Made by a program: the position numbers and the translations under genes
Part shown: positions 6,632 through 62,948 of the stretch, one piece after another
Position numbering within the stretch: the first letter of the stretch is position 1
Layout: every line of letters starts with the position of its first letter
Assembly (NCBI GenBank): GCA_038087875.1
Contig: CM075991.1
Span: 14,138,001-14,202,000 of the forward strand
From: Malacoraja senta
Taxonomy: Eukaryota
Direction: 5' to 3'
Length of the DNA stretch: 64,000 nt
The notes under the pieces: generated by a model
Database searches by the model: none
Seen by the model: only the letters and a program-made list of their open reading frames with translations
Told to the model about the DNA's origin: nothing

Positions 6632-7203
6632 TCTGCAGTTGTACAGGGCCCTGGTGAGACCACACCTGGAGTATTGTGTGCACTTTTGGTCCCCTAATTT
6701 GAGGAAGGACATTCTTGCTATTGAGGGAGTGCAGCGTAGGTTCACGAGGTTAATTCCCGGGATGGCGGGGCTGTCATACGCTGAGAGAATGGAACGGCTG
6801 GGCTTGTATACTCTGGAATTTAGAAGGATGAGAGGGGATCTTATTGAAACATATAAGATTATTGAGGGTTTGGACACGCTAGAGGCAGGAAATATTTTCC
6901 CGATGTTGGGGGAGTCCGGAACCAGGGGCCACGCACAGTTTAAGAATAAGGGGTAAGCCATTTAGAACGGAGTCTGTGGAATTCTCTGCCTCAGAGGGTG
7001 GTGGAGGCCGGTTCTCTGGAGACTTTCAAGAGAGAACTAGATAGGGCTCTCAAAGATAGCGGAGTCTGGCGATACGGGGAGAAGGCAGGAACCGGGTACT
7101 GATTGGGGATGATCAGCCATGATCACATTGAATGGCGGTGCTGGCTCATAGGGCCGAATGGCCTACTCCTGCACCTATTGTCTATTGTCTATTGTCTATT
7201 GTC
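6632..7203 (+). mobile_element. CR1 (HER1-like) LINE 3' fragment
   Basis: LYRALVRPHLEYCVHFWSP...RGDLIETYKI...TRGH, followed by the 3' hairpin and (tctattg)n tail. Confidence 0.9.
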
Positions 7204-7269
7204 ACTTTGTGTTTTTCTTTGTTCTCTTTGCATTAAGTGAATATTCTAGATACCTAATACATTCACGGG

Positions 7270-7830
7270 CACCTCCTCCAACCTCCTCTACTGTATCCGC
7301 TGTTCCCATTGTGGCCTCCTGTACATTAGCAAAACAAAGTGCTCAATCCGCCAAGGCCTACTGGATCTCCGTTTTAACTCCCCATTCCCATTCCCACACT
7401 GACCTTGTGTGTAGGAAGGAACTGCAGATGCTGGTTTACACCGAAGATAAGACACAAAATGTTGGAATAACTCAGCGGGACAGGCAGTATCTCTGAAGAG
7501 AAGGAATGGGCGACGTTTCGGGTCGAGACCCTTCTTGAGACTGAAGACTCTATCACCCATTCCTTCTCTACAGAGATGCTGCCTGTCCCGCTGAGTTACT
7601 CCAACATTTTGTGTCTATCCACGTTGACCTTTGTGTCCTGGGCCTCCTGCATTGCCAGAGTGAGGCCACACATAAACTGTATGACTCTAATTGCCACAAG
7701 GTCAGAGGTCCTGTTTACTAACGTGACTCCATCTGCAGTCTCTGATGGTGGTAAAATATTTTTGGGAACCATTTAGTGGAACCTCATATTCCGCTTGGGT
7801 AGCTTGTATGAACATTGAATACTATAATAT
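7270..7830 (+). pseudogene. Fragmented Penelope GIY-YIG endonuclease coding remnant
   Basis: LYCIRCSHCGLLYISKTK (GIY-YIG motif), then SHTDL..VLGLLHCQSEATHKL and LIFRLG. Interrupted by a PLE palindrome (about 7408-7620) and a templated insertion. Confidence 0.75.
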
Positions 7831-8121
7831 TAGAACTCCCCCCTCCCCTTTATCCCCCCCCCCCACTGAAGAAGGGTCACCTATCCATGTTCTCCAGAGA
7901 TGCTGCCTGACCAGCTGAGTTACTCCAGCACTTTATGTCCTTTTGTGTAAACCAGCATCTGCAGATCCTTGCTTATACATTCCAGTTATTTTCTTGTATC
8001 CTTGCCAACGTGATATTTTGTTTTCTTTTTACAGAACAAGGTGCTCGACTTTTATGACACACGTTCTGAAGCCCAGTGGTTGGGCTAATGTGGTCCCCCC
8101 GACATCGTAGAACCAAGAAAA

Positions 8122-8555
8122 ACTCTGCCATTACTGCGGGAAATTGCAGAGAATTGTGGACGCAGCTCAGACCATCAAGCAAACCAACCTCTCTTCCATC
8201 GACTCCATCTACACCTCGCGCTGCCTCGTCCAGGCCAGCAGCATCATCATAGACCAGCCTCAACCCAGTCACTCCCCCTTCTCCCCTCTCCCATCAGGCA
8301 AGAGGTACAGAAGTGTGAAAACGCACACCTCCAGATTCAGGGACAGTTTCCTCCCTACTGTCATCAGGCAACTGAACCATCCTACAAACAACTAGAGAGC
8401 GGTCCTGAGCTACTATCTACCTCATTGGAGACCCTCAGACTACCTCTGATTGGCCCTTTCTGGAGTTTATCTTGCACTAAATATTATTCTCTTCATCAGG
8501 TACACTGTGGATGGCTCGATTGTAATCATTTATAATCGTTCCGCTGACTGGATAG
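8122..8555 (+). mobile_element. Rex1/Babar LINE 3' fragment
   Basis: KLQRIVDAAQTIKQTNL.SIDSIYTSRCL...PLPSGKRYRSVKTHTSRFRDSF. Confidence 0.85.
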
Positions 8556-8564
8556 CTGGACAAT

Positions 8565-9037
8565 AGGACTTTTATTTCTTGAAGCGCTGGAGGATGAGGG
8601 TTGATCTTATAGAGGTGTATAAAGTCATGAGGGAAATAGACAGGGTGAATGCACAGAGTCTTTTACCCAGAGTAGGGGAACCAAGTACCTGAGGACATGG
8701 GTTTAAGGTGAGAGGGGAAAGATTTGAGGGGGAACTTTTTCACACAGAGGGCGGTGGGTATGTAGAACGAGCTGCCAGAGACAATAGACAATAGACAATA
8801 GACAATAGGTAGTTGAGGCAGGTGTTCATATATTTCAAAGGTCTTTATTGTCACGTGTACCAATTAAGGTGAAACTCGATTTACAAGAACATTTAAAAGA
8901 TATTTGGATAAGAGCATGGATAGGACAGGTTTAGCAGGATATGGGCCAAGCAGACAGGTGGGACTAGTGTCTATGGGCATCGTGTTGGCATGGGTAAGTG
9001 GGGCCGAAGGGTTTGTTTCGCTGCTGTATGACTCTAA
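8565..9037 (+). mobile_element. Older CR1 3' fragment
   Basis: gatcttatagaggtgtataaa (DLIEVYK) through the tail gggccgaagggtttgtttcgctgctgtatgactcta. Confidence 0.75.
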
Positions 9038-12810: not shown

Positions 12811-13199
12811 TTTATCAACACTACTTTTTGATCTCTCCCCAACACAACAATGTTTAAGGAAGCACAATACTGAGTTGGAGCCAAAGATAGACACAAAATG
12901 TTGGGCAAATGTGTCTATCTTTGGTTTAAACCAGCATCTGCAGTTCCTACATACACACTGAGGAGGAGCCCCTGATTCTTATATCATTAATTCTCAAGGC
13001 TGGGAGGCATAGTGGCAACATAGTGGAGCTGCTGCCTGACAGGTAGACTCAACAAGTCAAGCATCAGCAGTTATGTAACAAAGCTGAAGGCCAATGTTGA
13101 TGCAAGAAACTGCAGATGCTGGAATCTTGGGCAAAACACAAAGAGCTGGAGGAACTCAGTGGGTCAGGCTTGGACTAACCTCTGAATTAACAAGGCCTC

Positions 13200-13330
13200 A
13201 ATCAGTCTGAAGAAGGGTCCCGACCCGAAAAGTCAACCATTCCTTCGCTCCAGAGATGCTGCCCGTCCCGCAGAGTTACTCCAGCACTTTGTGTCTATCT
13301 TCGGTGTAAACCAGCATCTGCAGTTCCTTC
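13200..13330 (+). mobile_element. Penelope 3' end with hammerhead-like core
   Basis: ctgaagaagggtcccgacccgaaaagtc...ccagcatctgcagttcctt. Confidence 0.75.
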
Positions 13331-13399
13331 CTGCTCAGAATGACTCTGTTGGATGTGGCTTTTTGTGTTACTCCAGCTTTTTGTGTCTCTCTTCGAGTC

Positions 13400-13605
13400 A
13401 GGCAGCCTCCACGGAGGGGAATGGTCAGGCGACGTTTCGGGTCGGGTTACTTGAAGTTAGGGAAGTCAACATTCATACTGCTGGGGTGTAAGTTGCCCAA
13501 GTCAAGTCAAGTCAAGTCAAGTTTATTCGTCACATACACATACGAGATGTGCAGTGAAATGAAAAGTGGCCCAAGCGAAATATGAGGTGTTGTTCCTCCA
13601 ATGTG
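13400..13605 (-). pseudogene. Penelope GIY-YIG C-terminal remnant
   Basis: EEQHLIFRLG..NLHPSSMNVDFPNFK* on the minus strand, split by a short Rex1-type tail with TSD gcccaag. Confidence 0.75.
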
Positions 13606-14094
13606 AATGAGCGATGGATGGTCAGTGTGGATTTGTTGTGTTGGTGTGGTATCTGTAAAACTACTACAACAGTGGCTTCCCCTCTTTAGTTCAGGCCAGG
13701 GCGATGCCCCATTGTGGAATTGTTGGAGGCAGTGCCAGTGGTTCCAATCCTGTCTCTGCAGCTCGTAGCTGGCCCTGCTTTGATAAACCCTCTTACACTG
13801 AGCTCCTGTCAATGCTTCCTTCACTCTCCACGATTCCCTACTCATTATTCAACCTGCATCAACCTCTCTGACAGAGCATCACACCACAGCTCGCTTCAGA
13901 TAAAAATATATGCTGCCATCATCTCTCACTGACACTGATCTCGAACCTGCGTCTGCCACTTACCCGGCCTGGTGCTACAGGAAACATCTTCATCACAATT
14001 ATTCTGTTGATCATTATGCTGAACGCATTCTATGCAGAAGGAGCAAGGTGGTCTTGGAAGGAACGCTGGTTTAAACCGAAGATAGACACAAAAT

Positions 14095-14757
14095 ATAGCA
14101 AAAGGATTTGAGTATAGGTTCATAGCAAAAGGATTTGAGTATAGGAGCAGGGAGGTTCTACTGCAGTTGTACAGGGTCTTGGTGAGACCGCACCTGGAGT
14201 ATTGCATACAGTTTTGGTCTCCTAATCTGAGGAAAGACATTCTTGCCATAGAGGGAGTACAGAGAAGGTTCACCAGACTGATTCCTGGGATGGCAGGATT
14301 TTCATATGAAGAAAGACTGGATAGACTTGGCTTGTACTCGCTCGAATTTAGAAGATTGAGGGGGGATCTTATAGAAACTTACAAAATTCTTAAGGGGTTG
14401 GACAGGCTAGATGCAGGAAGATTGTTCCCAATGTTGGGGAAGTCCAGGACAAGGGGTCACAGTTTAAGGATAAGGGGGAAGTCTTTTAGGACCGAGATGA
14501 GAAAAACATTTTTCACACAGAGAGTGGTGAATCTCTGGAATTCTCTGCCACAGAATGTAGTTGAGGCCAGTTCATTGGCTATATTTAAGAGGGAGTTAGA
14601 TGTGGCCCTTGTGGCTAAGGGGTTCAGGGGGTATGGAGAGAAGGCAGGTACAGGATACTGAGTTGGATGATCAGCCATGATCATATTGAATGGCGGTGCA
14701 GGCTCGAAGGGCCGAATGGCCTACTCCTGCACCTATTTTCTATGTTTCTATGTTTCT
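14095..14757 (+). mobile_element. Young CR1 3' fragment
   Basis: Uninterrupted 164-aa ORF2 C-terminus (14167-14661) and (ttctatgt)n tail, inserted in a PLE end. Confidence 0.92.
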
Positions 14758-19412: not shown

Positions 19413-20019
19413 CTTATTGGCTTTGGTAATTGTAAATTATCTCTAGTGTGTAGGATATTGTTAGTGATGGGGGTGATCGATGGCCGGTGTGAACACAATG
19501 GGCCAAGGAACCTGTTTCCGCACTGTATCTCATAGAAACATGGAAAATAGGTGCAGCAGTAGGCAGCACCACCATTCAATATGATCATGGCTAATCATCC
19601 TAAATCAGTACCCCGTTCCTGCTTTCTCCCCATATCCCTTGATTCTGTTGGGATCTCTAAACAAAGGGTCTCGTGGGTCTGATCTGATCTGATAGCGTTG
19701 CGTGAATCTGCTTCACAGGGACTGTGGCAGTATGGGTGACAGAGGAGGGATGATGAGGCAGAGGTGTGAAGATGAGTGTACGTCTGGCATGTAATTAAGC
19801 TGCAGTGACCACACAACACTGCGGTTGCCAATGGGGTCAGAGTCTGGCCTTTCCGTGGTGAGTGACTCACCCCCTGAGTTCCCAAAAGCCTTTCCGTCAC
19901 ACACAGCTCGTGTCAGTAGTGGGACTAAATGCTCTTCATGCCTCAGTAAACGTGGGCTCAAAAACTGCACATGAAATCCAACAGCCTTCAGAACCAAAGG
20001 GCTAGTGCCAGGGAGTGAA

Positions 20020-21362
20020 GAGGTAATAATGGGCATTTGGATAGCAGTGAAAGGATTAGTCCAAGTCAACATGGATTTATGAAAGGGAAATCATGCATGA
20101 CTAATCTTCTGGAATTTTTTGAGGATGTGACAAGTAAAATGGATGAAGGGGAGCCAGTGGATGTAGTGTATCTAGACTTTCAGAAAGCCTTTGATAAGGT
20201 CCCGCACGGGAGACTGGTGACTGAAATTAGAGCACATGGTATTGGCGATAGGGTGTTGACGTGGATAGAAAATTGGTTGTCAGACAGGAAGCAAAGAGTA
20301 GGATTGAACGGGTCCTTTTCAGAATGGCAGGCAGTGGCGAGTGGAGTGCCGCAAGGCTCGGTGTTGGGGCCGCAACTGTTTACCATATATATTAATGATT
20401 TGGAAGAGGGAATTAGTAGCAACACTAGCAAGATTGCAGATGACACAAAGCTGGGTGGCAGTGTGAACTGTGAAGAGGATGTTAGGAGGTTGCAGGGTGA
20501 CCTGGACAGGTTGAGTGAGTGGGCAGATGCGTGGCAGATGCAGTATAATATAGATAAATGTGAGGTTATCCACTTTGGCGGCAAAATCAAGGGGGCAGAT
20601 TATTATCTCAATGGGGTTAGGTTAGGTAAGGGGTGGGGGGTACAGCGAGACCTGGGTGTCCTTCTACACCAGTCACTGAAAGTTGGCGTGCAGGTACAGC
20701 AGGCAGTGAAGAAAGCTAATGGAATGTTGGCCTTCATAACAAGAGGATTTCAGTATAGGAATAGAGAGGTTCTTCTGCAGTAGTATAGGGCTCTGGTAAG
20801 ACTACTGGAGTATTGCGTACAGTTTTGGTCTCCTAATTTGAGGAAGGACATCCTTGTGATTGAGGCAGTGCAGTGTAGGTTCACAAGATTGATCCCTAGG
20901 ATGGCAGGACTGTCATATGAGGAAAGATTGAAAAGACTAGGCTTGTATTCACTGGAGTTTAGAAGGATGAGGGGTTATCTTGTAGAAACATTTAAATTTT
21001 AAAAGGACTGGACAAGCTAGATGCAGGAAAAATGTTCCCAATGTTGGGCGAGTCCAGAACCAGGGGACACAGTCTTAGAATAAAGGGGAGGCCATTTAAG
21101 ACTGAGGTGAGAAAAAACGTTTTCACCCAGAGAGTTGTGAATTTGTGGAATTCCCTGCCACAGAGGGCAGTGGAGGCCACATCACTGGATGGATTTAAGA
21201 GAGAGTTAGATAGAGCTCTAGGGGCTAGTGGAGTCAAGGGATATGGGGAGAAGGCAGGCACGGGTTATTGATTGGGGACGATCAGCCATGATCGCAATGA
21301 ATGGCGGTGCTGGCTCAAAGGGCCGATGGCCTCCTCCTGCACCTATTGTCTATGTTTCTATG
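20020..21362 (+). mobile_element. CR1 LINE ORF2 fragment containing the RT core (degenerate)
   Basis: QHGFMKGKSC, YLDFQKAFDKV, SGVPQGSVLGP and IADDTKL. Stop at 20781 and frameshifts downstream; intact 3' tail. Confidence 0.92.
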
Positions 21363-23245: not shown

Positions 23246-23798
23246 AGGGACAATTTACATTTACAGTTTTTGTCAATCGCTTTGACACTAGTTTCAGAAC
23301 CTTGATGTCATTTTTCACAACTCTAGATACAAAACTCAAAACGGTCACCACTTGTATCACAGGCTGTCCAACGTTCAAAACATTGCATTGTGTATTCATA
23401 TCTTTAAAGAAAGCTTGCACTCACAGAATCATTGGTTCAAACAACTCATTTATCATGAAATACCATAGGGACATTTCTTTAGATCACCCACACACAACAT
23501 ACACATAGTTTCACTGTTTAGTTGTTCGTACGACCATTAAATATTGTAGTACAAAATATGTGATACATGTTTCATCCTGTGCTCCACGTAATGTCACTGT
23601 AAAAGGATTCGTAGAGAGAATACCACAGACACAGTGGAATCATTGAACAAAGCTGAAATGTATTGATGAATACAAACTAAATGACAACATAGGTTGAATG
23701 AAAGCAACAATTACTGTAACAAAACAAAAAAAAAGTCCTGCAAAACCAACTGCCGTGTTCCTCACCTGGCTACTGTACAGTAAACAAAGGATCAACAA

Positions 23799-25739
23799 TC
23801 ACTCGTCATCCCCATCAACCCTGTCTTGTGGATTGGGCCACAGGTTCTCATCCACATCCGCGTAGATGTTTTCGTTTGCCAAACATCTTGGAAAGTACCT
23901 TCGCGCATGGCGAATCCAGGCCTGACACTGGTCTGCTGTAATGTCATCGCAGGCATTGTCCAGGGCCTGAAGAAGGGTCACTTGTTGATGCGGATGCCGA
24001 TCATACACTTTCCACCTCCATGTGGAGAAAAATTCCTCAATGGGGTTAAGGAAAGGAGAGTATGGGGGCAAGTACACAGTGAGGAACTGTGGATGGGCCT
24101 GAAACCATGCCTGCACCAGATGAGCGTGGTGGAACCTACGTTGTCCCACACAATGACATCAATTACACCAACAGCTCTACAGACTAGAGTTAGCTCATCA
24201 AGAAATGCAACAAGGAGCTCTGCATTGTATGCGCCAATCAGAGATCTACGCCCTACCACACCATCTTCTGATATCGCCACACACATACTGATGTTGGCCG
24301 CACGTCGTGCAGGTACTTGTATGGTTGCCCGCTGGCCAATTAAATTTCGCCCTCTCCTCCTTGTCTTGGCCAGGTTGAAGCCTGCCTCATCCACAAAAAC
24401 AAATTTGTGATGATTGTCATCCGCATCCAGGGCCATCACCCTCTATGTACAAAAAGACATGTTAGAAAGAGAATTACTGTACAGTATTGATTGCAGTACA
24501 ATGATGGGGAATTTTTCACAAGCAGGCATCATGAAACTGAACATACCTGAACATACTCAATCCTCAGTTGCTTCACTCTGTCTGCATTTCTTTCAAAAGG
24601 CACACGGTACAACTGTTTGAGGGACACCTGGTGCCTTTTCAGAACACGTGCAATGGTCGGCAAACTTATGGCTTCCACATTCCTGAAGAGATCTTCATCG
24701 TCCAGGATGTTCTGTCTGATTTCTCTAAGCCGAATGTCATTTCTGGCCCGGACCATGTTGACCACAGCCCGTTCCTGTTCCTCAGTGAGGAGTCTGCCTC
24801 TGCCTCCACTATTTGGTCTAGTCTCAATTCTGTAGGGAATATGACGGGAAGAATATGTCATCATACTGTAGAACACATGTTCATAGTCACATTACCTACT
24901 CTGTGCTGCACATTGGCATGCAGTGTACAATCATTTGACAATTACAGTAAGAGTAGCCTACAGTACTGTAATGTTTACTGTAGTGCATGCTGAAGACTTA
25001 CCGGTTCTCATTGCGGAAAGTTCTAATGATTGAGGCCACGGTTGATCTTCTAAGGTTTGGTTGTATCATTCTCGCTGCCTCAATCATTGTCATGCCATGA
25101 TTGATGACATGATCTACAACCATTGCTCTAATCTCATTGGAGACTCTTTGCCGTTGCTGTCTTGGTCCTTGTCCTCGACCCCGTTCCCCCACACCTCTCA
25201 AACGGGGCCCATGGCCACCTCTCAAACGGGGCCCATGGCCACCTCTCAAACGGGGCCCATGGCCACCTCTCAAACGGGGACCCATGGCCACCTCTCAAAC
25301 GGGGCCCATGGCCACCTCTCAAACGGGGCCCCATGGCCACCTCTCAAACGGGGCCCATGGCCACCTCTCAAACGGGGCCCCATGGCCACCTCTCAAACGG
25401 GGCCCATGGCCACCTCTCAAACGGGGCCCATGGCCACCTCTCAAACGGGGCCCATGGCCACCTCTCAAACGGGGCCCATGGCCACCTCTCAAACGGGGCC
25501 CATGGCCACCTCTCAAACGGGGCCCATGGCCACCTCTCAAACGGGGCCCATGGCCACCTCTCAAACGGGGCCCATGGCCACCTCTCAAACGGGGCCCCAT
25601 GGCCACCTCTCAAACGGGGCCCATGGCCACCTCTCAAAAGGGGTTCTTGTCCCCTGCCATTCCTTTGACCACGTCTTCCTCCTCTTCCTCCTCTTCCTTC
25701 TCCTACTTGACCTCTATGGTGCCCACCTGCCTGCTCCAT
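23799..25739 (-). pseudogene. Spliced DDE transposase: exons 25739-25002, 24829-24547, 24442-23799; frameshifted
   Basis: HTH-like N-terminus, FVFVDEAGFN, VWDNV and LPPYSPFLNPIEE. GT-AG introns of 172 and 104 nt restore the frame. A 1-nt deletion lies near 24138 and the repeat carries a net +1 shift. Confidence 0.88.
25192..25640. repeat. 24-bp tandem repeat (ggggcccatggccacctctcaaac), about 18 copies, coding PRLRGGHG
   Basis: Directly visible. Four units are 25 bp. Confidence 0.95.
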
Positions 25740-26439
25740 GTTGTATCACTACAGATGTTGTTGTGGATGCCACTTACACCCATACCACAAGGTCAGATCA
25801 ATCATCAGTAACGAATTGGTGTCACAGGTGGTGTCAATCATTGTCGGCATCCTGAAACTTTCATGATCTGAACATGCTCATCCTCACTTTCCATAAGACT
25901 ATGCTTTAAGAGTAATGCAACAGTTACTTGTCATTGTGAGCAGTTGAATCAATTGATAGTTAGATTATTGTAATGTAATGAATAGACAGTCATCTCAAAT
26001 GTGATGTGTGAATTGCATTTTGAAATGGTTCTACTTTGATGTTAAGTTGTGTCATTTTGAACAGGTGATTATAGTTCAATGGACAAATGATCTTTGGTTT
26101 ATGTGAATTGTATCCAAGAAATTGGAAAAAGTGTTAGAGTTTTGAAAAAAGTGCATTTTGATCATTGGTTGTGAGTTTTGTATCTGGAGTTGTGAAAAAT
26201 GACATCAAGGTTCTGAAACTAGTGTCAAAGCGATGGACAAAAACTGTATACCAAGCCAATTAACCTACAAACCTGTACGTCTTTGGAGTGTGGGACGAAA
26301 CGGAAGATCTCGGAGAAAACCCATGCGGTCACGGGGAGAACGTACAAACTCCACACAGACAGCACCTGTAGTCGGGATCGAACCTGGGTCTCTGGCGCAG
26401 TAAGACAGTAGCTCTGCCGCTGCGCCACCGTGCTGCTCA

Positions 26440-27907: not shown

Positions 27908-28685
27908 GGACACAGAGTGCTGGAGCAACTCAGCGGGTTGGGCAGCATCTCTGGAGAACATGGATAGGGGACGTTTCGGGTCAGGACCATTCTTCAGGCT
28001 GATTGTGGGGCGGGGAGGGCTGGGTGGGAAGAAAGCTGGAAGAGAGGAGAGGCAAGACAAAGCATGGCAGGTAAAAGGTGGGCACAGACGAGGGAGGTTT
28101 TTCATAGGCAGATGGTTGGAACAAAGGCCAGAAATAAAAGACAGGATAGAAAAGTTGGGAGTTTAAATGTTTGTCCTCTCACCTAAACCTACCTGATCTA
28201 CCGGTTGCTAAACACTTTAACTCCCACTCCCATTCCCACACTGACCTTTCTGTCCTGGGCCTCCTCCATTGTCAGAGTGAGGTCATATGTAAATTGGAGG
28301 AACAGCACCTCATATTCGCTTGGGCAGCTTGCACCCCAGCGGTATGAACATTGACTTCTCTAACTTCAAGCAGCCCTTGCTTTCCCTCTCTCTCCAACCC
28401 TCCCCCTTCCCAGTTCTCCGACCAGTCTTACTGTCCCCCTGATTAAGTGTTACCTCTCTATGCCTCGTTGTCATCTTCCCCTGGCTAACAATGATCTATT
28501 CTACATTTTCCTTGAACTTTGTCCCCTTTGATATCTCGTTTTCACACCTTACCCTTCCTTATCTCTGTGTCTCCCTCCCCCCTGGCTCTCAGTCTGAAGA
28601 AGTGTCTCGGCCGAATGTGACCCATTCCTTCTCTCCAGAGATGCTGCCTGTCCCGCTGAGTTACTCCAGCATTTTGTGTCTATCC
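27908..28685 (+). mobile_element. Penelope-like element 3' portion with upstream inverted pLTR
   Basis: Inverted end at about 27908-28165, then PDLPVAKHFNSHSHSHTDLSVLGLLHCQSE..KLEEQHLIF..GSLHPSGMNIDFSNFK, a pyrimidine-rich UTR, a degenerate HHR and the conserved 3' end. Confidence 0.82.
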
Positions 28686-28866
28686 AAAACGTTTGGCAAC
28701 CGGGAGATCGCGTGGGCACGGTGGACAGAGATGATGTGATGCTCACTGACCCACCCCCCCCCCCCATCCTTCCGACCTCACCGTGAACATGCCCCCCACA
28801 TATTAATAAAATAGTAGAATAGATTCGTAATTAGATATCTTAGAATAATATATTAATATATTAAGT

Positions 28867-29096
28867 TGTTCAAGAAGGAACTGCAGATGCTGGAAAATCG
28901 AAGGTAGACAAAAATGCTGGAGAAACTCAGCGGGTGCGGCAGCATCTATGGAGCGAAGGAAATAGGCAACGTTTCGGGAAGGAAATAAGCAACGTTTCAG
29001 GCCGAAACCCAAGGGTTTCGGGCTGAAACGTTGCCTATTTCCTTTGTTCCATAGATGCTGCCGCACCCAGAGTTTCTCCAGGATTTTTGTCTACCT
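28867..29096. mobile_element. Penelope-derived palindrome (subfamily B)
   Basis: Inverted arms flanked by tattaatatattaa direct repeats. Confidence 0.8.
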
Positions 29097-29402
29097 ATTA
29101 ATATATTAATATTGCTGTTGCAATGGAGTGTTTGCGTGTTAGATACTGCTGTTGTAATCGTAGATTGAATCGTGACTGTGTGATCAATGGGGCATATCCT
29201 GTGGTTCCGGAAACGAGTAATTTGTTAATGGAAAAGTAACGTGGGAGAGGAAGAAGTGGCCATTAGTAAAGGAGCTTGAAGGGAATAGTACCGCCAAGTG
29301 AAAAAGTACTTAGAAGGGAAAGTCTCCTGTACCCGGAGGATGGGGTTCCTTTGCTTGAGAGATCGGGAGCAGGTTGGAGGCTGCGAACGGTCTCCAGAGC
29401 AG

Positions 29403-34394: not shown

Positions 34395-35774
34395 ATACAT
34401 AGAAACATAGAAAATAGGTGCAGGAGTAGGCCATTCGGCCCTTCGAGCCTGCACCGCCATTCAATATGATCATGGCTGATCATCCAACTCAGTATCCTGT
34501 ACCTGCCTTCTCTCCACATCCCCTGATCCCTTTAGCCACAAGGGCCACATCTAACTCCCTCTTAAATATAGCCAATGAACTGGCCTCAACTACCCTCTGT
34601 GGCAGAGAATTCCAGAGATTCACCGCTCTCTGTGTGAAAAAGTTTTTTCTCATCTCGGTCTTAAAGATTTCCCCCTTATCCTTAAGCTGTGACCCCTTGT
34701 CCTGGACTTCCCCAACATCGGGAACAATCTTCCTGCATCTAGCCTGTCCTACCCCATAAGAATTTTGTATGTTTCTGTAAGATCCCCTCTCAATCTCCTA
34801 AATTCTAGCGAGTATAAGCCAAGTCTATCCAGTCTTTCTTCATATGAAAGTCCTGACATCCCAGGAATCAGTCTGGTGAACCTTCTCTGTACTCCCTCTA
34901 TGGCTATAATGTCCTTCCTCAGATTTGGAGACCAAAACTGTACACAATACTCCAGGTGTGGTCTCACCAAGACCCTGTACAACTGCAGTAGAACCTCCCT
35001 GCTCCTATACTCAAATCCTTTTGCTATGAAAGCTAACATACCATTCGCTTTCTTCACTGCCTGCTGCACCTGCATGCCTACTTTCAATGACTGGTGTACC
35101 ATGACACCCAGGTCTCGCTGCATCTCCCCTTTTCCTAATCGGCCACCATTTAGATAATAGTCTGCTTTCCTGTTTTTGCCACCAAAGTGGATAACCTCAC
35201 ATTTATCCCCATTATACTGCATCTGCCAAACATTTGCCCACTCACCCAGCCTATCCAAGTCACCTTGCAGTCTCCTAGCATCCTCCTCACAGCTAACACT
35301 GCCCCCCAGCTTAGTGTCATCCGCAAACTTGGAGATGTTGCCTTCAATTCCCTCATCCAGTTCATTAATATAAATTGTAAATAGCTGGGGTCCCAGCACT
35401 GAGCCTTGCGGTACCCCACTAGTCACTGCCTGCCATTGTGAAAAGGACCCGTTTACTCCTACTCTTTGCTTCCTGTTTGCCAGCCAGTTCTCTATCCACA
35501 TCAATACTGAACCCCCAATACCGTGTGCTTTAAGTTTGTATACTAATCTCTTATGTGGGACCTTGTCGAAAGCCTTCTGAAAGTCCAGATACAACACATC
35601 CACTGGTTCTCCACTATCCACTCTACTAGATACATCCTCGAAAAATTCTATAAGATTCGTCAGACATGATTTACCTTTCGTAAATCCATGCTGACTTTGT
35701 CCAATGATTTCACCACTTTCCAAATGTGCTGCTATCCCATGTTTAATAACTGACTCTAGCAGTTTCCCCACTAC
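34395..35774 (-). mobile_element. Young CR1 ORF2 fragment with intact RT core, cut by the assembly gap
   Basis: Open frame 35774-34749: QHGFTKGKSCL, YLDFQKAFDKV, GVPQGSVLGP and KFADDTKL. Confidence 0.93.
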
Positions 35775-35974
35775 NNNNNNNNNNNNNNNNNNNNNNNNNN
35801 NNNNNNNNNNNNNNNNNNNNNNNNNNNNNNNNNNNNNNNNNNNNNNNNNNNNNNNNNNNNNNNNNNNNNNNNNNNNNNNNNNNNNNNNNNNNNNNNNNNN
35901 NNNNNNNNNNNNNNNNNNNNNNNNNNNNNNNNNNNNNNNNNNNNNNNNNNNNNNNNNNNNNNNNNNNNNNNNNN
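35775..35974. other. Assembly gap (200 N)
   Basis: Run of N. True size and flank continuity are unknown. Confidence 0.99.
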
Positions 35975-38989: not shown

Positions 38990-39360
38990 TTAGTTGAAGA
39001 TGGAGTAACTCAGCGGGCCAGGCAGCAACTCTGGAGCGAAGGAATAGGTGACGTTTCGGGTCGAGACGTCATATCTTTGCATATCTTTCATTCATTTGTT
39101 CCACATCACCGTCTGTATCTCTCGTTTCCCTCTCCACTGACTCAGTCTGGAGGAGGTAGACAGAAATGCTGGAGAAACTCAGCGGGTGAGGCAGCATCTA
39201 TGGAGCGAAGGAATAGGTGACGTTTCAGACTGAAGAAGGGTCTCCACTCGAAACGTCACCCATTCCTTTTCTCCAGAGATGCTGCCTGCCCCGCTGAGTT
39301 ACTCCAGCTTTTTGTGTCTATCTGCGGTTTAAACCAGCATCTGCAGTTGCCTCCAACACA
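38990..39360. mobile_element. Nested Penelope-derived fragments and palindrome
   Basis: Arms of both subfamilies around ctgaagaagggtctccactcgaaacgtc. Flanked by tgattagttga repeats. Confidence 0.75.
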
Positions 39361-42344: not shown

Positions 42345-43215
42345 TCTGAAGAAGGGTCCCGACACGAAACGTCACCTGTTCTTTTTCTCCAGAGACGCTG
42401 CACGACCGGCTGAGTTACTCCACCATTTTGTTACTCCACCACCGAGTTACTCCACCACTCTGTTACTGCACCACTGAGTTACTCCACCACTGAGTTACTC
42501 CACCACTCTGTTACTCCACCACTTTGTTACTCCACCACTGAATTACTCCACCACTCTGTTACTCCACCACTGAGTTACTCCACCACTGAGTTACTCCACC
42601 ACTGAGTTACTCCACCACTGAGTTATTCCACCACCGAGTTACTCCACCACTCTGTTACTCCACCACTTTGTTACTCCACCACTGAATTACTCCACCACTG
42701 AATTACTCCACCACTCTGTTACTCCACCACTGAGTTACTCCCCACTGAGTTACTCCACCACTGAGTTACTCCACCACTGAGTTACTCCACCACTGAGTTA
42801 CTCCACCACTGAGTTACTCCACCACTTTGTTACTCCCCACTGAGTTACTTCACCACTCTGTTACTCCACCACTTTGTTACTCCCCACTGAGTTACTCCAC
42901 CACTGAGTTACTCCACCACTTTGTTACTCCACCACTGAATTACTCCACCACTCTGTTACTCCACCACTTTGTTACTCCCCACTGAGTTACTCCCCCACTG
43001 AGTTACTCCACCACTGAATTACTCCACCACTCTGTTACTCTACCACTTTGTTACTCCCCACTGAGTTACTCCACCACTGAGTTACTCCACCACTGAGTTA
43101 CTCCACCACTGAGTTACTCCACCATTGAGTTACTCCACCACTGAGTTACTCCACCACTGAGTTACTCCACCACTTTATATCTTTGGTAGAAGCCGGCATC
43201 TGCAGTTCTTTGTTT
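42345..43215 (+). mobile_element. Penelope 3' end hosting a 16-bp minisatellite
   Basis: HHR-like core at 42346. The element resumes after the array with ...ccggcatctgcagttc. Confidence 0.8.
42410..43175. repeat. 16-bp minisatellite (ctgagttactccacca)n, roughly 48 units
   Basis: The unit matches the PLE motif ctgagttactccagca. Confidence 0.93.
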
Positions 43216-45695: not shown

Positions 45696-46608
45696 CTTAG
45701 CTGGGGGGCAGTGTTAGCTGTGAGGAGGATGCTAGGAGGCTGCAAGGTGACTTGGATAGGTTGGGTGAGTGGGCAAATGCATGGCAGAGGCAGTATAATG
45801 TGGATAAATGTGAGGTTATCCACTTTGGTGGCAAAAACAGGAAAGTAGACTATTATCTGAATGGTGGCCGATTAGGAAAAGGGGAGATGCAACGAGACCT
45901 GGGTGTCATGGTACACCAGTCATTGAAAGTAGGCATGCAGGTGCAGCAGGCAGTGAAGAAAGCGAATGGTATGTTAGCATTCATAGCAAAAGGATTTGAG
46001 TATAGGAGCAGGGAGGTTCTACTGCAGTTGTACAGGGTCTTGGTGAGACCACACCTGGAGTATTGCGTACAGTTTTGGTCTCCTAATCTGAGGAAAGACA
46101 TTCTTGCCATAGAGGGAGTACAGAGAAGGTTCACCAGACTGATTCCTGGGATGTCAGGACTTTCATATGAAAACTGGATAGACTCGGCTTGTACTCGCTA
46201 GAATTTAGAAGATTGAGGGGGGATCTTATAGAAACGTACAAAATTCTTAAGGGATTGGACAGGCTAGATGCAGGAAGATTGTTCCCGATGTTGGGGAAGT
46301 CCAGAACAAGGGGTCACAGTTTAAGGATAAGGGGGAAGTCTTTTAGGACCGAGATGAGAAAAACATTTTTCACACAGAGAGTGGTGAATCTGTGGAACTC
46401 TCTGCCACAGAAGGTAATTGAGGCCAGTTCATTGGCTATATTTAAAAGGGAGTTAGATGTGGCCCTTGTGGCTAAAGGGATCAGGGGGTATGGAGAGAAG
46501 GCAGGCACGGGATACTGAGTTGGATGATTAGCCATGATCATATTGAATGGCGGTGCAGGCTCGAAGGGCCGAATGGCCTACTCCTGCACCTATTTTCTAT
46601 GTTTCTAT
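45696..46608 (+). mobile_element. Young CR1 3' fragment
   Basis: RLQGDLDRLGEWAN...GYGEKAGTGY with one small deletion. Near-identical to the 14095 and 34395 copies. Confidence 0.92.
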
Positions 46609-47569: not shown

Positions 47570-47597
47570 CTGAAGAAGGGTTTCAGCCCGAAACGTT
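47570..47597 (+). ncRNA. Minimal hammerhead ribozyme core (subfamily B)
   Basis: CUGAAGA-A-GGGU UUCA GCCC-GAAAC-GUU. Confidence 0.55.
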
Positions 47598-48930: not shown

Positions 48931-50274
48931 GGCACACCTCCGTGGCATGTGCTGGATTTTAATTCATTCTGACTGCCTGTTGAGCACATCCTTACAAAGG
49001 GTTAAACGCTAGTTGTTGTGATCTCTTCCTCTCAGCATTTGCATCTCGATTTGACCTATAAAAGTCCTGAAAGACGAGAGGTTTAAGCCTGTGATTCATG
49101 GAATAAAAATAACAAGCTTCACTCTGTCCGTCTCCGCTCACTATTGATCGCCATGTGCTGGAGGGAAGCCCAGTCAAGGAGGGGAGAAGGGAGCAGCGTA
49201 ATAGGAAGAACATCCAAGGGCATGAGTAGGAAGGAACTTCAGATGCTGGTATCAACCGAAGTGCTGGAGTCGAGACAAGAAGAAGGGTCTCGACCCGAAA
49301 CGTCGTCCATTCCTTCTCTCCAGAGATGCTGCCTGTCCCGTTACTCCAGCACTTTGTGTCTATCTTCGGTGTAAACCGGCATCTGCAGTTCCTTCCTACA
49401 CAGAATGACCCCATTGGATGTGGCTTTTTAGTTTAGTTTAGTTTTTAGTTTAGAGCTACGATGCAGAAACAGGCCCTTTGGCCCACCAAGTCATAAGGTC
49501 ATAAGTGGTAGGCCCATCAAGTCTACTCCGCCATTCAAACATGGCTGATCTATCTCTCCCTCCTAACCCCATTCTCCTGCCTTCTCCCCATAACCTCTGA
49601 CATCAGTACTAATCAAGAATCTCTGTCCGAAAAAGATCCATTGACTTGCGATCCTCGCACATGAACACTACCCAACACACACTCGGAACAATTTACATTG
49701 ACACCAGGCCAATTAACCTAGTGGGAGGAAACCGAATCCCATGCAGGTCACGGGGAGAACGTACAAACTCCGTACAGACAGCACCCGTAGTCAGGATGGA
49801 ACCTGGGTCTCTGGTGCTGTGAGGCAGCAACTCTACCGCTGCGCCACCGTGCCACCCCAGTTACTCCAGCATTTTGTGTCTATCTTCAGTGTAAAGCAAC
49901 ATCTGCAGTTCCATCCAAGGTAGAATGACTCTATTGGACGTGGCTACAGCTGGAACTAACATGGAGTTTTTATTCCTCTTTATTGCTTGTGATGGGGGGA
50001 GGGGGGGGGGGGGGAGATGTACAATGCATGTCCACCCGCCGGTCTAGACAGGAACTGTAAAAGAGCAGAGTGCTTTTCTAATAAGGGGAATGTGCCCTGA
50101 TATTAGGCATTGCCGTTTAAAACAAGAGGAGAGAGTTGTAAGGTTTTCTCGCTCTGGGGGAGGGGGAGGGCATTTCCGTGGTGAAAAGCAGGGACAATTG
50201 GGGGGTGGGCTGTTGCTTATTTAGTTTAGTTTTAGTTTAGCGATACAGCATGGAAACAGGCCCGTCGGCCCAGT

Positions 50275-50302
50275 CTGAAGAAGGGTCTCGACCCGAAACG
50301 TC
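50275..50302 (+). ncRNA. Minimal hammerhead ribozyme core (subfamily A, consensus-like)
   Basis: CUGAAGA-A-GGGU CUCG ACCC-GAAAC-GUC. All invariant core nucleotides are present. Confidence 0.6.
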
Positions 50303-51504
50303 ACCCATTCCTTCTCTCCAGAGATGCTCCCTGTCCCGCTGAGTGACTCCAGTATCTACCATCAGCTCAGTTTCCCACTGACAGCATCCCAGGAAGAACA
50401 GGTAGTCCTTGAAGTGGGTACAGGTCAGGTCAATAAAGAGGGTCTGGGACTTAAAAGACAGTTGATACAAATATCATGGCTCCTTTTGCCACCAAGAAAG
50501 GAGATGACACCTCATCCTCCTGCACTCCAAGGAATAATGTCCCAGCTTGCCCAACCTCTCCCTATAGCTCAGGCCCTCAAGTCCTGGAAATATCCTGGTA
50601 AATCTTCCCTGAACCCTGTCAAGCTTAACGATGTCTTTCCTATATGGACACACAATGCTGGAGTAACTCAGCGGGACCGGCAGCATCTCTGGAGAGAAGG
50701 AATGGATGACGTTTCGGGTCGAGACCCTTGTGTCTCCTATGAGAGGGTGACCAAAGAAGGTGTCTCAAATCTCCTGCTTTTCTCTCTGGTCCTTGAACAC
50801 AGATTGTGCGTGCAGCTTAGCAGGTCAGTCAGCATCTCTAAAGGACATGGATAGGCGACGTTACGGGTCGGGATGGAAGAAGGGTCCCCGCCTGAAATAT
50901 CGCCTGTCCATGTCCTCCAGAAATGCTGCCTGACCCGCTGAGTTACTCCAGCACTTTGTGTCTATCTTCCTGTAGGATGGGTCGGCTGTACCTGATACGT
51001 CACTCTGGGTCTGGGCTCATTATTAACCCGTGTACAGAGATGCAGTCAACATTTTGTTCATTTTTTAAACAATCAATTCTCCAATTTCAGATAACCTCCA
51101 ACCACCTCACCCCTTCCCCCTCCCCTTTCTCCCCACAAGCTCCCATTCTCCCCAACCCCCCTCCCCCGAGCCCCATCTGGAGTCCAGACATTTCTCCCCT
51201 CCCTCATTCAAGTTCCAGTTGCATTTATTGTCACAGTAGTTGGTGCAGAGATCTTCAATCCTCCTGTCTCATACAATCATAGAGTGATACAGTGTGGAAA
51301 CAGGCCCTTCCATCCTACTTGCCCACACTGGCCAACATGTCCCATCTACACTGGTCCCACCTGCCTGCTTTTGGCCCATATCCCTCTAAACCTGTCCTAT
51401 CCATGTTCAAGAAGGAACTGCAGATGCTGGAGAATCGAAGGTAGACAAAATTGCTGGAGAAACTCAGCGGGTGCGGCAGCATCTATGGAGCGAAGGAAAT
51501 TGGC

Positions 51505-51532
51505 AACGTTTCGGGCCGAAACCCTTCTTCAG
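51505..51532 (-). ncRNA. Minimal hammerhead ribozyme core (subfamily B)
   Basis: CUGAAGA-A-GGGU UUCG GCCC-GAAAC-GUU. Confidence 0.6.
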
Positions 51533-52395: not shown

Positions 52396-54149
52396 TTATT
52401 ATTTTTTTTTATTTTTTATTTTTTTATTTTTTAGAAGTACGGTAGATTACAGTAATGTACAACACGTATATATTAATACATTTTTTGTACCGCTTCACTT
52501 TTTTAAACTTTAAGAAAGAAAAAGAAAGAAGTAAGAAAAGTGAAGAAAGTGCGCAAAGGTTGTGAAGTGCAAAAGAGTGTTGGGAAAAGAAAGCCCCTTA
52601 GAAAAGAAGTTAGAGAAGGAAGTAAAGTTAGAAAATAGACCCTAGAAAAAAAAAGAGAAAGAAAGAAGGAACAATCGCTCTATTATAACTCTTATACCAT
52701 ACTTCATAGAGAAGGAACTACCAACCAAGTCTGTTTTTATTTTACCTCCCATTACCAGGTCCAGATACCTTTTATTTATTTATTTGTTTTTCTAAATTAC
52801 TATTGCACCTCATGCTTGTAATAGGTCCAAAAACGTAGACCACGTCTTTTGAAATTGATCTACTTTGCCTACTAGGAGGAATCTCATCTCTTCCAGATGT
52901 AATGTTTCCAACATATTTGATGTCCACATTTTTATTGTTGGTGTGGGCGCATTTTTCCAGAATTTAAGTATAAGCTTTTTTCCCATTATTAGCCCATAAT
53001 TGAGTAAATTCTTCTGATACACGTTTAATTCAGGAATACCTTCCGATATTCCAAAAATAATCCATTCTGGTTTTGGTACCAGTTTTATTTTGATTAATTT
53101 TGAAAAAATATCAAATATTTCAAACCAGAATTTTTGGATTTTTGTACAAAAAACAAAAGAATGTGCTATGGTAGCTTCTTGACATATACATTTATCACAG
53201 ATTGGTGAGACGTTAGGAAAGATTTTATTTAGTTTGGTTTTTGAATAATATAATCTATGTAATGTTTTAAATTGGATAAGCGTATGTCGTACGTTGATCG
53301 AGCATTTATGCACCTGTAATAAATGATTATCCCAACTCTCTTTTGAAATTTTTATACCTAGATCTTGTTCCCAATCTCTTCTAATTCCATCTGTTGTGGG
53401 TATTTCTATATTTAAGATGATATTATATAAGTATGATATTAAATTAACTGATTCCGCCTTTGTCTTCATTGCTTCATCTAGTAAGTCGGAAGGCATATTA
53501 TAATAATCTTTTGTGTGTGTTTTCAAATAGTCACAGATTTGTAGATATTTAAAATATTGATTATTTTTCAAATTATATTTCAGTTGTAGTTGTTGGAATG
53601 ATAGTAATTTTTCTAATTCATACAGATCTTCGAGCGTTTTAATTCCCATTCTTTCCCATTGTATAAATGCTTTATCTATGATTGAAGGTTTAAACGATGG
53701 GTTATTGACTATTGGTATTAAGAGAGATAGGTTTCTTAATTTTAGATTCTGTTTTATTTGCTTCCATGTTCTAATAGTGCTATATATAATTGGATTTTTA
53801 TTATAATTTTTATTATTCAAATTTATTGGAGAGAGAATAATCGCTCCTATATTATTCGGGGAGCAATCCCCTTTTTCCATTATAATCCAGTCCACCTGCT
53901 GGGCAGAATTGTCCAGCAGGTGAATCATATTTTTAATATTTACTGCCCAGTTATAATACATAAAGTTAGGGAGCGCTAGACCCCCCAACTCTTTTCGTTT
54001 GTTAAGGTGTGTTCTTTGTATTCTGTGGGATTTGTAATCCCATATAAAATTTGTAATGTCTGAGTCCAGTTTTTTGAAAAACTTTTTTGGGAGATATATA
54101 GGTATTGATTGAAATAGGTAAAGGATTTGTGGTAAGAAAATCATTTTTA
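52396..54149 (-). mobile_element. 5'-truncated LINE-1 with A-rich tail and 17-bp TSD
   Basis: TSD tgtgtagggtagtatta at 52379-52395 and 54150-54166. T-rich tail on the + strand. Confidence 0.92.
52810..54149 (-). pseudogene. L1 ORF2 C-terminal part (post-RT region and CCHC zinc knuckle), uninterrupted
   Basis: LPQILYLFQSIPIYLPKKFF..FIW..GGLALPNFMYY...CDKCICQEATIAHSFVFC. About 446 codons without a stop, lacking the 5' part. Confidence 0.9.
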
Positions 54150-54547
54150 TGTGTAGGGTAGTATTAGTGTGCGGGGATTGCTGGTTGGCGTGGACTGGGT
54201 GGGTGGAAGGGCCGGTCTCCGCGCTGTATCTCGACACTAAACTAAACAAGCCTTTATCCTCGTTGCAGGTCGGCACAAATTTCCCAGGACTGAAGCGGAG
54301 GTGCGGAGATAGGCCATGCGGCATTGTGGAAAAGCTCTGAAGCATTAGGTAGGCTGCACTCAGTATGCCCACTGTTAGTTAAACCGACTGGGACACAAAC
54401 TTGGTGTAAAGTTGACAGGCTGTGGGAGTTCTCCATTTCTGGACATCTACACGCTATAACCCTGGATACATTGGGTGAACAGCAACCCACCTGCCCCAAG
54501 AAGGGTCTCCACCAGAAACGTCACCCATTCCTTCCCTCCAGAGACGC

Positions 54548-56525: not shown

Positions 56526-57217
56526 CCCTTAGATGTGAGGGTTTGCGAGCTAATCGGGCCTCTGTAAAATTGCCTCCTAATGTGTAAGGGAGTGGATGAG
56601 AAAGTAAGATGGCATAGAACTAGAATGATCGATGGTTGGCGTGGACTTGGTGGGCCGAAGGGCCTGTTTCCAAACTGTATTTCCAAACTAAACTAAAAGG
56701 CCAGCATGGTCAAAAAGACCTATTGCCTGCGCTGTGGCACTCTGACCCTTCCAGCCTGTATGTCATCATCAATGTTGATGGCTCAGTGACCAATACTGAC
56801 TAAAACATTTACCTACTGTGTGTGTGGGGCATGGCTGTGTTGATATTGGCAGCTGTTTTCCATCCTACAGTACGGACTGTACTTTCCAAATGGGCTTCTT
56901 TGGCTCCAGAATATTTGTAGTGAAGGCTGCAGGGAGTGAGAAGGGATATATAAACGCAGGTTTCCAAGCGGGTGAGGCAGCATCTATGGAGCGAAGGAAT
57001 AGGTGACGTTTCGGGTCCCGAAACGTCACCTATTCCTTCGCTCCATAGATGCTGCCTCACCCACTGAGTTTCTCCAGCATTCGATTTTTTCAGCCTGGTG
57101 ACGTTCAGATCCAACTCTTCCACCGCTATCCTCTGCCTTTTCCCAATCTCCTGTCTCCCAGCCAACGTTTGATGGCTTTCACTCTTTTGCTGAAGTCTCC
57201 CATTGCTCTCGTTCATC

Positions 57218-59063: not shown

Positions 59064-59724
59064 CCTCTTGTCTCTTGTGCAGAGGTACAGTGGGCACAGG
59101 CTTTACAATGTCTGTGTCACAGCACCATAACAGGCGATTCGGCCCATCGTGTCCCTGCTGACCCATCTGTGCTCACCCCAGTTTCAGGAAAACCTAAAAG
59201 TCAAGAGTGTTTTTGTTGCCACATGCACTGAAACGGAACAATGAAATTCTTACTTGCAGGTCTGTAAACGCCGTACTCAATAGATAACAAACATAAAAGT
59301 GGAGTTTAATAAATAATTTTTAAAAATCTAAATTGTAAAAAAACAAAACAAGACCTAGTGCAATTAAAGCAGTTCATAGAAACAAGGAACTGCAGATGCT
59401 GGTTAACACGCAAAGGACACAAAGTGCTGGAGTAACTTAGCAGGTCAGGCAGCATCTCTAGAGAACATGGATAAGAGACGTTTCAGGTCCGAAGAAGGGT
59501 CTCAACCCGAAACGCTGTATATCCGTGTTCTCCAGAGTTGCTGCCCGACCTGCTGAGTTACGCCAGCTCATAGGCAGCTCATAGTTCAGAGTTTAGTTGG
59601 AGTTCATAGCCTGGTGGCAGTTGGGAAGAAGCTGCTCCTGAACCGGGATGTTACGTTTTTCAGGCTCCTGTATCTGGTACAAGGACTCCAGCACTTGGCC
59701 CATGGTCCTCGATACCTTGATTGG

Positions 59725-61642: not shown

Positions 61643-61670
61643 GACGTTTCGGGTCGAGACCCTTCTTCAG
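61643..61670 (-). ncRNA. Minimal hammerhead ribozyme core (subfamily A)
   Basis: Exact reverse complement of CTGAAGAAGGGTCTCGACCCGAAACGTC. Confidence 0.6.
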
Positions 61671-62084: not shown

Positions 62085-62558
62085 TCATAAGGAATAGGAG
62101 TAGAATTAGGCCGTTCGGCCCATCAAGTCTACTCCACGATTCAATGTTCAAGGAGGAACTGCAGATGCTGGAAAATCGAAGGTAGACAAAAATGCTGGAG
62201 AAACTCAGCGGGTGAGGCAGCATCTATGTGTGGACAAAATGGGTATTCAATCATGGCTGATCTATCTCTCCCTCCTAACCCCACTCTCCTGCCTTCCCCC
62301 CATAACCTCTGACACCCGTACTAATCAAGAATCTATCTATCTCTACCTTAAAAATATCCACTGACTTGGCCTCCACATCCTTCTGTGGCAAAGAATTCCA
62401 CAGATTCACCACCCTCTGACTAAAGAAATTCCTCCTCATCTCCTTCCGAAAAGAACGTCCCTTTAATTCTGAGGCTATGTATGACCTCTTGTCCTAGACT
62501 CTCCCACTAGTGGAAACATCCTCTCCACATCCACTCTATCCAAGCCTTTCACTATTCT
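62085..62558 (-). mobile_element. CR1 3' fragment with nested PLE piece
   Basis: RIVKGLDRVDVERMFPLVGESRTRG on the minus strand. Confidence 0.82.
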
Positions 62559-62561
62559 GCT

Positions 62562-62948
62562 GGGAACTGCAGATGCTGGTTTACACTGAAGATAGACACA
62601 AAAAACTGGAGTAACTCAGTGGGACAGGCAGCATCTGTGGAGAACACGGACAGGTGACGTTTCGGGTCGAGACTCTTCTTCAGACAGAGTCAGGGGAGAG
62701 TGAAACAAGAGCTGTGAAAGGGTACAAAGAACAAATGAATAAAAGATGTGCCCAAGAACAAGCCAGCAACGATGATCAGGAAAAGGCAGAGCGCACAATG
62801 GTCTATTGTTGGCTGTGGAAGTGAAAGTCAGCAGGACGACAGTGAAACTATTACGATGACTAGGGTGGCGGGGAGGGACGGAGAGAGGGGACGCAAGGGT
62901 TACTTGAAGTTAGAGAAATCAATATTCATACCGCTGGGTTGTAAGCTG
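62562..62948 (-). mobile_element. Penelope-like element 3' end (GIY-YIG stop, UTR, HHR, terminus)
   Basis: SLQPSGMNIDFSNFK* followed by the UTR, an HHR core at 62683-62656 and the terminal ccagcatctgcagttcc. Confidence 0.82.

Follow-up and report, generated by a model that had tools for sequence, protein, structure and literature searches.

The 28-nucleotide unit at positions 50275-50302 of a 64,000-nucleotide stretch of the Malacoraja senta genome (contig CM075991.1; hereafter the window) resembles a hammerhead ribozyme, and the repeat that carries it recurs throughout the window on both strands. The locus raises the question of whether this is a real ribozyme, which element brought it there, and whether its many copies act on host transcripts, as a sequence-only reading had proposed. 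We consider it very probable that the unit is a minimal type I hammerhead at the pLTR of a likely Neptune-type Penelope-like element (PLE), and that the scattered, 5′-truncated copies, which lose their sequence about as fast as the DNA flanking them, are likely inert.

The exact units at 50275-50302 (+) and 61643-61670 (−) have the sequence and coordinates reported earlier. In the first, identified from its sequence and core pattern, the core runs from C3 to A9 (50275-50281) and is followed by an extra unpaired A (50282) between A9 and 10.1, a 4-bp stem II (50283-50286 with 50291-50294) with a 4-nt loop, G12-A14 (50295-50297), a palindromic helix III in which ACGU (50298-50301) is the whole helix, and C17 (50302), with the predicted cut between 50302 and 50303. 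Helix I has 2 bp, 50273-50274 with 50303-50304. The second unit is truncated at C3, and because the copy begins there its first helix I pair is absent, the two positions reading C/A. There are three CpGs per unit, one of them C11.1-G12, and G12 is the catalytic general base of the hammerhead. The ACGU palindrome is the consensus in all five subfamilies (5/5), and the G10.1-C11.1 pair is G-C in 16/20 window rows and 11/12 cross-lineage rows. This anatomy, with the core CUGANGA / GAAA / UH in type I order, bears out the assignment to the minimal type I class, and together with the available portions of PMC4209133 it also bears out a loop-less ACGU helix III that could form only between two copies.

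A relaxed core pattern, CTGANGA-N10..16-GAAACGTH, matches ten times in the window, five times on each strand, and was found in none of 100 shuffles of the window. A pattern scan for the hammerhead core in viral contigs gave no matches, and an Rfam search of the window returned no hammerhead among 31 matches at E values up to 5, which we infer to be unsurprising because the motif comes without helix III. The missing Rfam match could equally be counted in favor of the resemblance being a chance feature of the repeat consensus, as could the prediction that the monomer adopts a fold other than the hammerhead and the lack of double-sided pair changes in the window. The subfamilies had been said to covary as pairing predicts, and this did not hold within the window, where the differences are one-sided A-to-G (wobble) changes: among 20 hand-picked copies, 0/6 pairs are changed on both sides and the covariation score is 0.132, vs 0.139 when shuffled. 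Against chance stands the agreement of all core bases, the extra A, the G10.1-C11.1 pair and the palindrome with published minimal hammerheads, as well as the recurrence of the motif, with swapped helix I pairs, in the same place in 4/6 distant PLE loci, so that we regard a chance origin as extremely improbable.

These six PLE loci come from metagenome contigs. In the four with the motif, the core and the extra A are the same and stem II is almost unchanged; the motif follows the match to the ORF end at a distance of about 90-190 nt, and two of the four are identical over it. Helix I differs between the window and the distant loci by a swap of both its pairs, from G-C to C-G and from U-A to A-U (2 pairs, 5 cells, score 0.223, reached in 4/500 shuffles), which amounts to about one evolutionary event. 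Three of the four distant loci have ACAU in place of ACGU, and are for that reason probably decayed too. Since the same motif occupies the same place in distant PLEs with helix I swapped, we take it to be a real structure of the source element; the conserved position and the swap indicate, at the level of sequence comparison, that source elements keep the hammerhead structure. At the protein level only, the zebra-shark gene model P0004 reads through its UTR into a peptide resembling the translated motif.

The Penelope-like origin proposed earlier is supported. The repeat is the ~140-nt 3′ end (pLTR) of a PLE, and four copies are linked to endonuclease remnants of the GIY-YIG type, each followed by the repeat (28174-28370, 62906-62947, 7244-7339 and 13453-13506). 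The sequence-only reading had placed the unit behind a GIY-YIG C-terminus at 28190-28685. The link holds, as 28174-28370 (+) encodes a frameshifted PLE endonuclease C-terminus, which is followed by a 3′ UTR and a pLTR (remnant 28174-28692, +), but the hammerhead at 28594 is broken, with deletions in stem II and GAAA and a G at position 17. For the other linked locus, given as 62562-62948, the ORF end is present, but 62906-62947 (−) holds only its last 14 codons; the remnant (62552-62947, −) continues with the 3′ UTR, a hammerhead with a stem II mismatch (62656-62683) and a tail. Two older remnants complete the set: one at 7244-7974 (+), which retains the region of the GIY-YIG motif itself (7244-7339) and whose hammerhead (7866) is deleted, is interrupted by a younger inverted pair at 7406-7627, and the other, at 13101-13506 (−) with its ORF end at 13453-13506, by a younger + copy at 13200-13406.

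Of the element's protein, only pieces of the endonuclease are present in the window. No Pfam domain was found in the 45-aa frame at 28183-28317, which matches two skate gene models, the better one at 82%; these best matches point to a skate, or a near relative of skates, as the likely host. The C-terminal part of this better model retrieves shark ORFs with a PLE-type reverse transcriptase (RT), a Cys linker and a GIY-YIG domain; RT and GIY-YIG occur together in the shark relatives P0003, P0004 and P0006. A search with the model P0001 was dominated by an unrelated RT part, its endonuclease stretch being matched only by P0020 among the 150 matches listed, and this RT part, apparently a LINE fragment of other origin within a chimeric gene model, was left out. 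The skate gene models P0001, P0002 and P0007 contain PLE endonuclease pieces as exons, which are probably annotation artefacts or exonised repeats. A CX2-5CxxC linker lies upstream of the endonuclease in P0003, P0005, P0006, P0008 and P0020, in a region missing from the window remnants. Such a linker is a feature of the Neptune clade according to the available part of PMC8557442, and by the linker of its relatives the element is likely Neptune-type.

A repeat profile built from 18 copies gave 89 matches, of which 86 are in the stored alignment; these cover 10.9% of the window, 46 on the + strand and 40 on the −. Subtracting 7 pieces of a degenerate tandem array at 42487-43132 leaves 79 copies. 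The array itself (42487-43214, +) has grown from the downstream part of the repeat copy at 42346. All 79 copies end at the same 3′ boundary, but their 5′ sides are truncated to different extents: C3 is present in 28, while 26 start within the hammerhead and 25 after the cut site. The 50275 unit belongs to a copy of subfamily A without a tail (50271-50358, +), which starts 4 nt before the core, with an unrelated repeat upstream. Strict integrity, meaning the core, four stem II pairs and the palindrome, is found in five of the 28 copies (39230, 47570, 50275, 51532 and 61670), three of which also keep both helix I pairs. Among these, the unit at 39230-39257 (+) abuts its own inverted partner at 39148-39228 (−), and those at 47570-47597 (+) and 51505-51532 (−) belong to subfamily B, the latter with a tail and a short pyrimidine-rich upstream stretch. 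The earlier list of near-intact variants was right about 47570 and 51505, which are in fact intact, but too generous for the others: the helix III palindrome is broken at 13207 and 15376, and 27970, 42346, 43688 and 62656 each have one mismatch in the 4-bp stem II. The same reading distinguished two subfamilies; its account of the A/B differences is right, though the 59 copies of sufficient length to be assigned fall into at least five subfamilies.

The copies also record how they were inserted. Their tail score is bimodal, 24 of 71 having a tail of ~30 nt, and 17 divergent (head-to-head) pairs are present, vs 1.7 expected by chance (at most 8 in 2000 shuffles). The tail is on one arm in 12 of these pairs, on none in 4 and on both in 1, a nested insertion, although in a sample of this size the single tail per pair does not reach significance on its own. 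Target duplications of ~11-15 bp, read by eye, surround 4/17 pairs, among them three with a one-arm tail: 1549-1785 (~15 bp), 28868-29098 (~14 bp) and 59380-59573 (~11 bp). The available part of PMC8557442 gives 5′ truncation, an adjacent inverted copy and an optional 30-40 bp tail on one end as the signature of EN+ PLEs, and the window copies show this published signature of 5′ truncation, inverted partner and one-sided tail. Head-to-head pairs, such as 1549-1785, 7406-7627, 28868-29098, 56967-57083 and 59380-59573, would form RNA hairpins of 60-130 bp; if transcribed, the divergent pairs are likely to give double-stranded RNA and editing substrates. Sub-threshold miRNA-like Rfam matches were set aside as hairpin artefacts of inverted pairs. 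No tandem array of complete hammerhead units was found among the 86 window matches. Contigs from the sequencing runs described below contain rare joints (50309 to 50272 and 50305 to 50271) that make tandem hammerhead repeats with a period of 35-38 nt, and a joint (50352 to 50271) that sets whole short units head to tail. Among the arrangements observed, these head-to-tail joints alone would allow a double hammerhead to form in cis.

Excess conservation of the core over its flanks had been named as a check on ribozyme function. Among the window copies G12 is changed in 6/41, vs 21/150 for the CpG bases of the flanks (p = 1.0). We also compared contigs of four sequencing runs with 50255-50365 (158,695, 214,604, 12,925 and 15,507 contigs), whose RNA status is a guess, one being probably DNA; the run figures are depth-weighted contig shares affected by edge clipping, and in two runs the counting was incomplete. 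In these runs G12-to-A amounts to 14.8, 16.0, 14.6 and 14.2% of depth, and C-to-T at the partner base of the same CpG lies below it, at 11.1, 11.8, 10.8 and 10.8%. As the change at the partner base would still allow a G-U pair, selection for activity predicts the reverse of the excess of G12-to-A. The palindrome CpG changes at 8-17% in the run contigs, where U16.1-to-C, at 1.8-2.7%, is close to the 2.8-3.2% for T-to-C in the flanks. No changes of at least 2% are listed over 50271-50284 or at 50296-50298, which would speak against neutral decay, but these stretches are likely empty through edge clipping; position 50345, where the reference itself has an odd base, is missing from the list too. 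The loop CpG at 50289-50290 likewise has no change of at least 2%, though its two neighbouring CpGs change at 8-17%, which may be due to clipping or to sequence context. A depth dip of ~6% over the cut site, the same in all four runs, and the equal frequency of the G12 change in DNA and in the runs guessed to be RNA were not counted as evidence.

For the non-CpG core bases the outcome depends on the comparison. With 15/321 changes, they differ from all flank columns scored against subfamily consensuses (225/2773, p = 0.027), a value likely inflated by unresolved subfamily sites, and do not differ from the flank columns common to all subfamilies (127/2050, p = 0.31); a base-matched expectation of 24.6 changes, vs the 15 observed, again gives p = 0.027. 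Limited to 26 copies reaching C3, the counts are 13/235 for the non-CpG core and 58/920 for the flank (p = 0.76; base-matched p = 0.23). In all these comparisons alignment ends and seeds favor core matches. All 11 core bases are kept in 13 of the 26 copies, and neutral decay predicts about 12-13, from an expected intact share of 0.49 with rates set by hand. There may be a small core deficit, of up to a third, and strong selection is excluded. Taken over these tests, an excess of core conservation is not established. The scattered copies mutate like neutral debris, and are therefore likely inert.

This bears on a further part of the sequence-only reading, namely that same-strand copies in long transcripts would pair into double hammerheads and make up a potential distributed RNA-cleavage system, here taken as one kept by the host. 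In its favor are the high density (79 copies, the 86 matches covering about a tenth of the window), the five strictly intact units and ten with the full core pattern, the modest deficit of non-CpG core changes in two tests, and the ACGU common to the subfamilies, because of which cross-dimers are possible on paper. Against it, in addition to the loss of G12 at the neutral CpG rate and to a number of intact cores close to that expected from decay, the copies have no strand bias. Along the same strand, intact copies lie 2.7-10.1 kb from one another, but for every intact copy an antisense one is found within 2-655 nt, whose pairing is predicted to undo its fold. For the 50275 unit this is the copy at 50638-50729 (−), 363 nt distant and complementary to its stem II, GAAA and cut site.

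Folding predictions point the same way. By nearest-neighbour folding, which ignores hammerhead tertiary contacts, proteins and co-transcriptional order, the predicted probability of stem II is 0.00 in 5/5 strictly intact copies placed in ±700 nt of context; folded alone, all five take other folds, three of them pairing the core with a downstream pyrimidine run. The double hammerhead is modelled at −6.1 kcal/mol; two monomers folded otherwise reach −16.6, and the predicted duplex of the 50275 copy with 50638-50729 has −143.5 kcal/mol. In a read-through transcript the dispersed copies would, on this modelling, more likely form double-stranded hairpins than ribozymes. In the accessible sections of PMC4209133, the minimal hammerhead of Schistosoma did not cleave as a monomer and cleaved at a low level as dimers, and the review PMC6765202, in the part available, considers that such motifs likely cleave as dimers, helped by a tandem layout. 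The anole PLE ribozyme cut only with its protein and was dispensable for insertion, and no RNA-seq ends were reported at its cut site in the portion available of PMC11167929. The intron setting assumed for the proposed system is not supported either: no host exon was found among 208 ORFs (205 of at least 45 aa in mostly unmasked DNA and 3 more), which hold only transposon domains (RVT_1 and DDE_3, with weak zf-RVT and HTH_32). A sub-threshold TNFR match among these ORFs proved to be a Cys-rich piece of the PLE. With neutral decay, balanced strands and nearer antisense copies, we consider a host-kept cleavage system very unlikely. If dispersed copies did cut host transcripts, this would be a new layer of RNA processing; the evidence points the other way.

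If the ribozyme matters at all, it would be in the tandem RNA of the source element itself, where two copies (helix III being ACGU:ACGU) and probably the element's protein would fold it. By analogy with the available part of PMC11167929, the protein would bind downstream of the hammerhead and nick both target strands. Reverse transcription would then begin at two sites, one giving copies with a tail and the other without, both located 70-105 nt downstream of the cut site, and would proceed on both nicked strands, mostly stopping within about 140 nt. The short cDNAs would be inserted as single or inverted ends, as the same source suggests, and hammerhead-bearing ends would litter the genome as a by-product of short reverse transcription.

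The 5′ ends of the copies may say more about the template RNA. In all four runs the best-supported upstream loose ends are at 50271-50274 (2436, 1327, 1362 and 860 for X1, for which the weakest row listed has 568), and none is at the cut site among the ends listed, although loose ends at 50271 also include copies that merely continue upstream. Of the 28 window copies reaching C3, about 20 begin within ~6 nt of it, and 1/79 begins at the cut site. The cluster reads TCAGTCT, just before the core, which we take to match the initiator consensus YYANWYY, and in each of the four runs the consensus has a G ahead of 50272. An extra G is what a copied cap would leave, as in other retroelements. The few window copies that start with AGT without the C (n = 5) have A before it in three and G in two, and do not bear out the extra-G idea. 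An internal initiator-type promoter and a 5′ intron are described for Penelope in the available part of PMC2377424. A 3′ splice site before the core (pyrimidine run and CAG), as in D. virilis Penelope, was considered and rejected, as the loose ends have no shared upstream exon (agreement 0.31-0.35). In the literature searched, which did not cover subscription journals, we found no paper on the 5′ ends of truncated copies or on the transcription start of PLE pLTRs.

One reading of this cluster, which we offer tentatively and hold to be possible rather than probable, is that the short copies are a fossil record of PLE copying from a capped, uncut RNA that is reverse-transcribed twice per insertion to its end. 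The RNA would start at the A of the initiator-like TCAGTCT, three bases before the core, and would stay uncut, since by prediction the core is held in a different hairpin, paired to the pyrimidine run downstream of it; one reverse transcription from each nicked strand, at two internal start sites, would run off the RNA 5′ end and often copy the cap as an extra G. It draws support from ends that lie at 50271-50274 and not at the cut site, from the preceding G and from the single tail per pair.

It is rather unlikely, though worth weighing, that the short copies derive instead from short non-autonomous masters, SINE- or retrozyme-like, that begin at TCAGT, and not from truncated full-length PLE RNA. 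The clustering of starts next to C3 and the loose ends piled at 50271-50274 would fit such masters as well, as would the several subfamilies, the pyrimidine-rich upstream UTR seen by eye in only about 6/28 copies, and the few head-to-tail joints of whole short units in the run contigs. However, UTR or ORF sequence is found upstream in one member of each of subfamilies A, B, C and E (28594, 51532, 27997 and 62683), the window has no tandem array of complete units, and 51 of the 79 copies are truncated further in. Such masters, if real, would change the origin of the copies and not their inertness.

The window also holds other elements. A Tc1/IS630-like transposase remnant (DDE_3, weak HTH_32) lies at 23784-25300 (−), adjoined by a 24-nt-type tandem repeat at ~25050-25850. 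A 522-aa open frame of young appearance at 52813-54378 (−), in an AT-rich island, is the C-terminal part of an L1/Tx1-like ORF2, with a weak zf-RVT match. Little-decayed LINE RT 3′ ends, which we take to be CR1-like, are at 20019-21271 (+, with an RVT_1 match at 20019-20783), 34489-35774 (−), 45701-46518 (+) and 14086-14661 (+), and 35775-35974 is a 200-base assembly gap (N).

The intronic amniote hammerheads kept by their hosts, HH9 and HH10, are few, ultraconserved and fold as monomers. In contrast, the window copies are very many, decaying and unable to fold alone, and what they have in common with the intronic amniote hammerheads mentioned in the introduction of PMC7229834 is a hammerhead core in vertebrate genomic DNA. 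The closest known system is the minimal hammerhead of PLEs (Cervera & de la Peña 2014, PMC4209133), which, in the portions available, has the same type I core, the unpaired base before stem II, G10.1-C11.1, a palindromic 15.2-16.2 without loop 3 and the same pLTR position behind the GIY-YIG ORF. It is likewise found mostly as single dispersed motifs from truncated PLEs, often as opposite-strand pairs 100-700 bp apart, and was reported in Neptune, Poseidon and Xena PLEs of fishes. Stem II is shorter here, 4 bp vs 7-8 bp in Schistosoma and 6 bp in D. virilis; the 2-bp helix I is also unlike those described in these portions, and ten core matches in 64 kb is far denser than the 4,000-9,000 per genome given for coelacanth and Xenopus.

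The insertions resemble those of EN+ PLEs in the available part of Craig et al. (2021, PMC8557442), with the same strong 5′ truncation, adjacent inverted copy and optional one-end tail. In the anole Poseidon element PAc, reverse transcription was from two internal sites, on both strands and from uncleaved RNA, as far as the accessible text of Frangieh et al. (2024, PMC11167929) describes. PAc is of the Penelope/Poseidon type, whereas the relatives of the element studied here have the Cys linker before the endonuclease, as in Neptune, and the 5′ ends here cluster just before the core, unlike in those portions of the PAc and EN+ PLE descriptions. Non-LTR retrozymes (PMC7229834; preprint 10.64898/2026.07.22.740005, both in part) are likewise non-coding and PLE-related with a type I hammerhead, and the preprint counts them in one chondrichthyan genome; they are, however, tandem arrays with a complete hammerhead per unit, whereas the window has single or inverted copies with a minimal motif.

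No cartilaginous fish is named in the searched portions of PMC4209133 and its supplements, and no cartilaginous-fish report naming this minimal hammerhead family was found in the literature searched. The motif is real, of ordinary origin and without sign of host function, and its kind has been known since 2014. It extends a known class by an unusually dense example from a cartilaginous fish, and warns that most of the hammerheads counted in such genomes are dead ends of retroelements. Given the huge copy number, genome statistics alone can cheaply address whether PLE hammerheads act outside their element, and the nature of the template RNA, both whether it is cut or uncut and where it starts.
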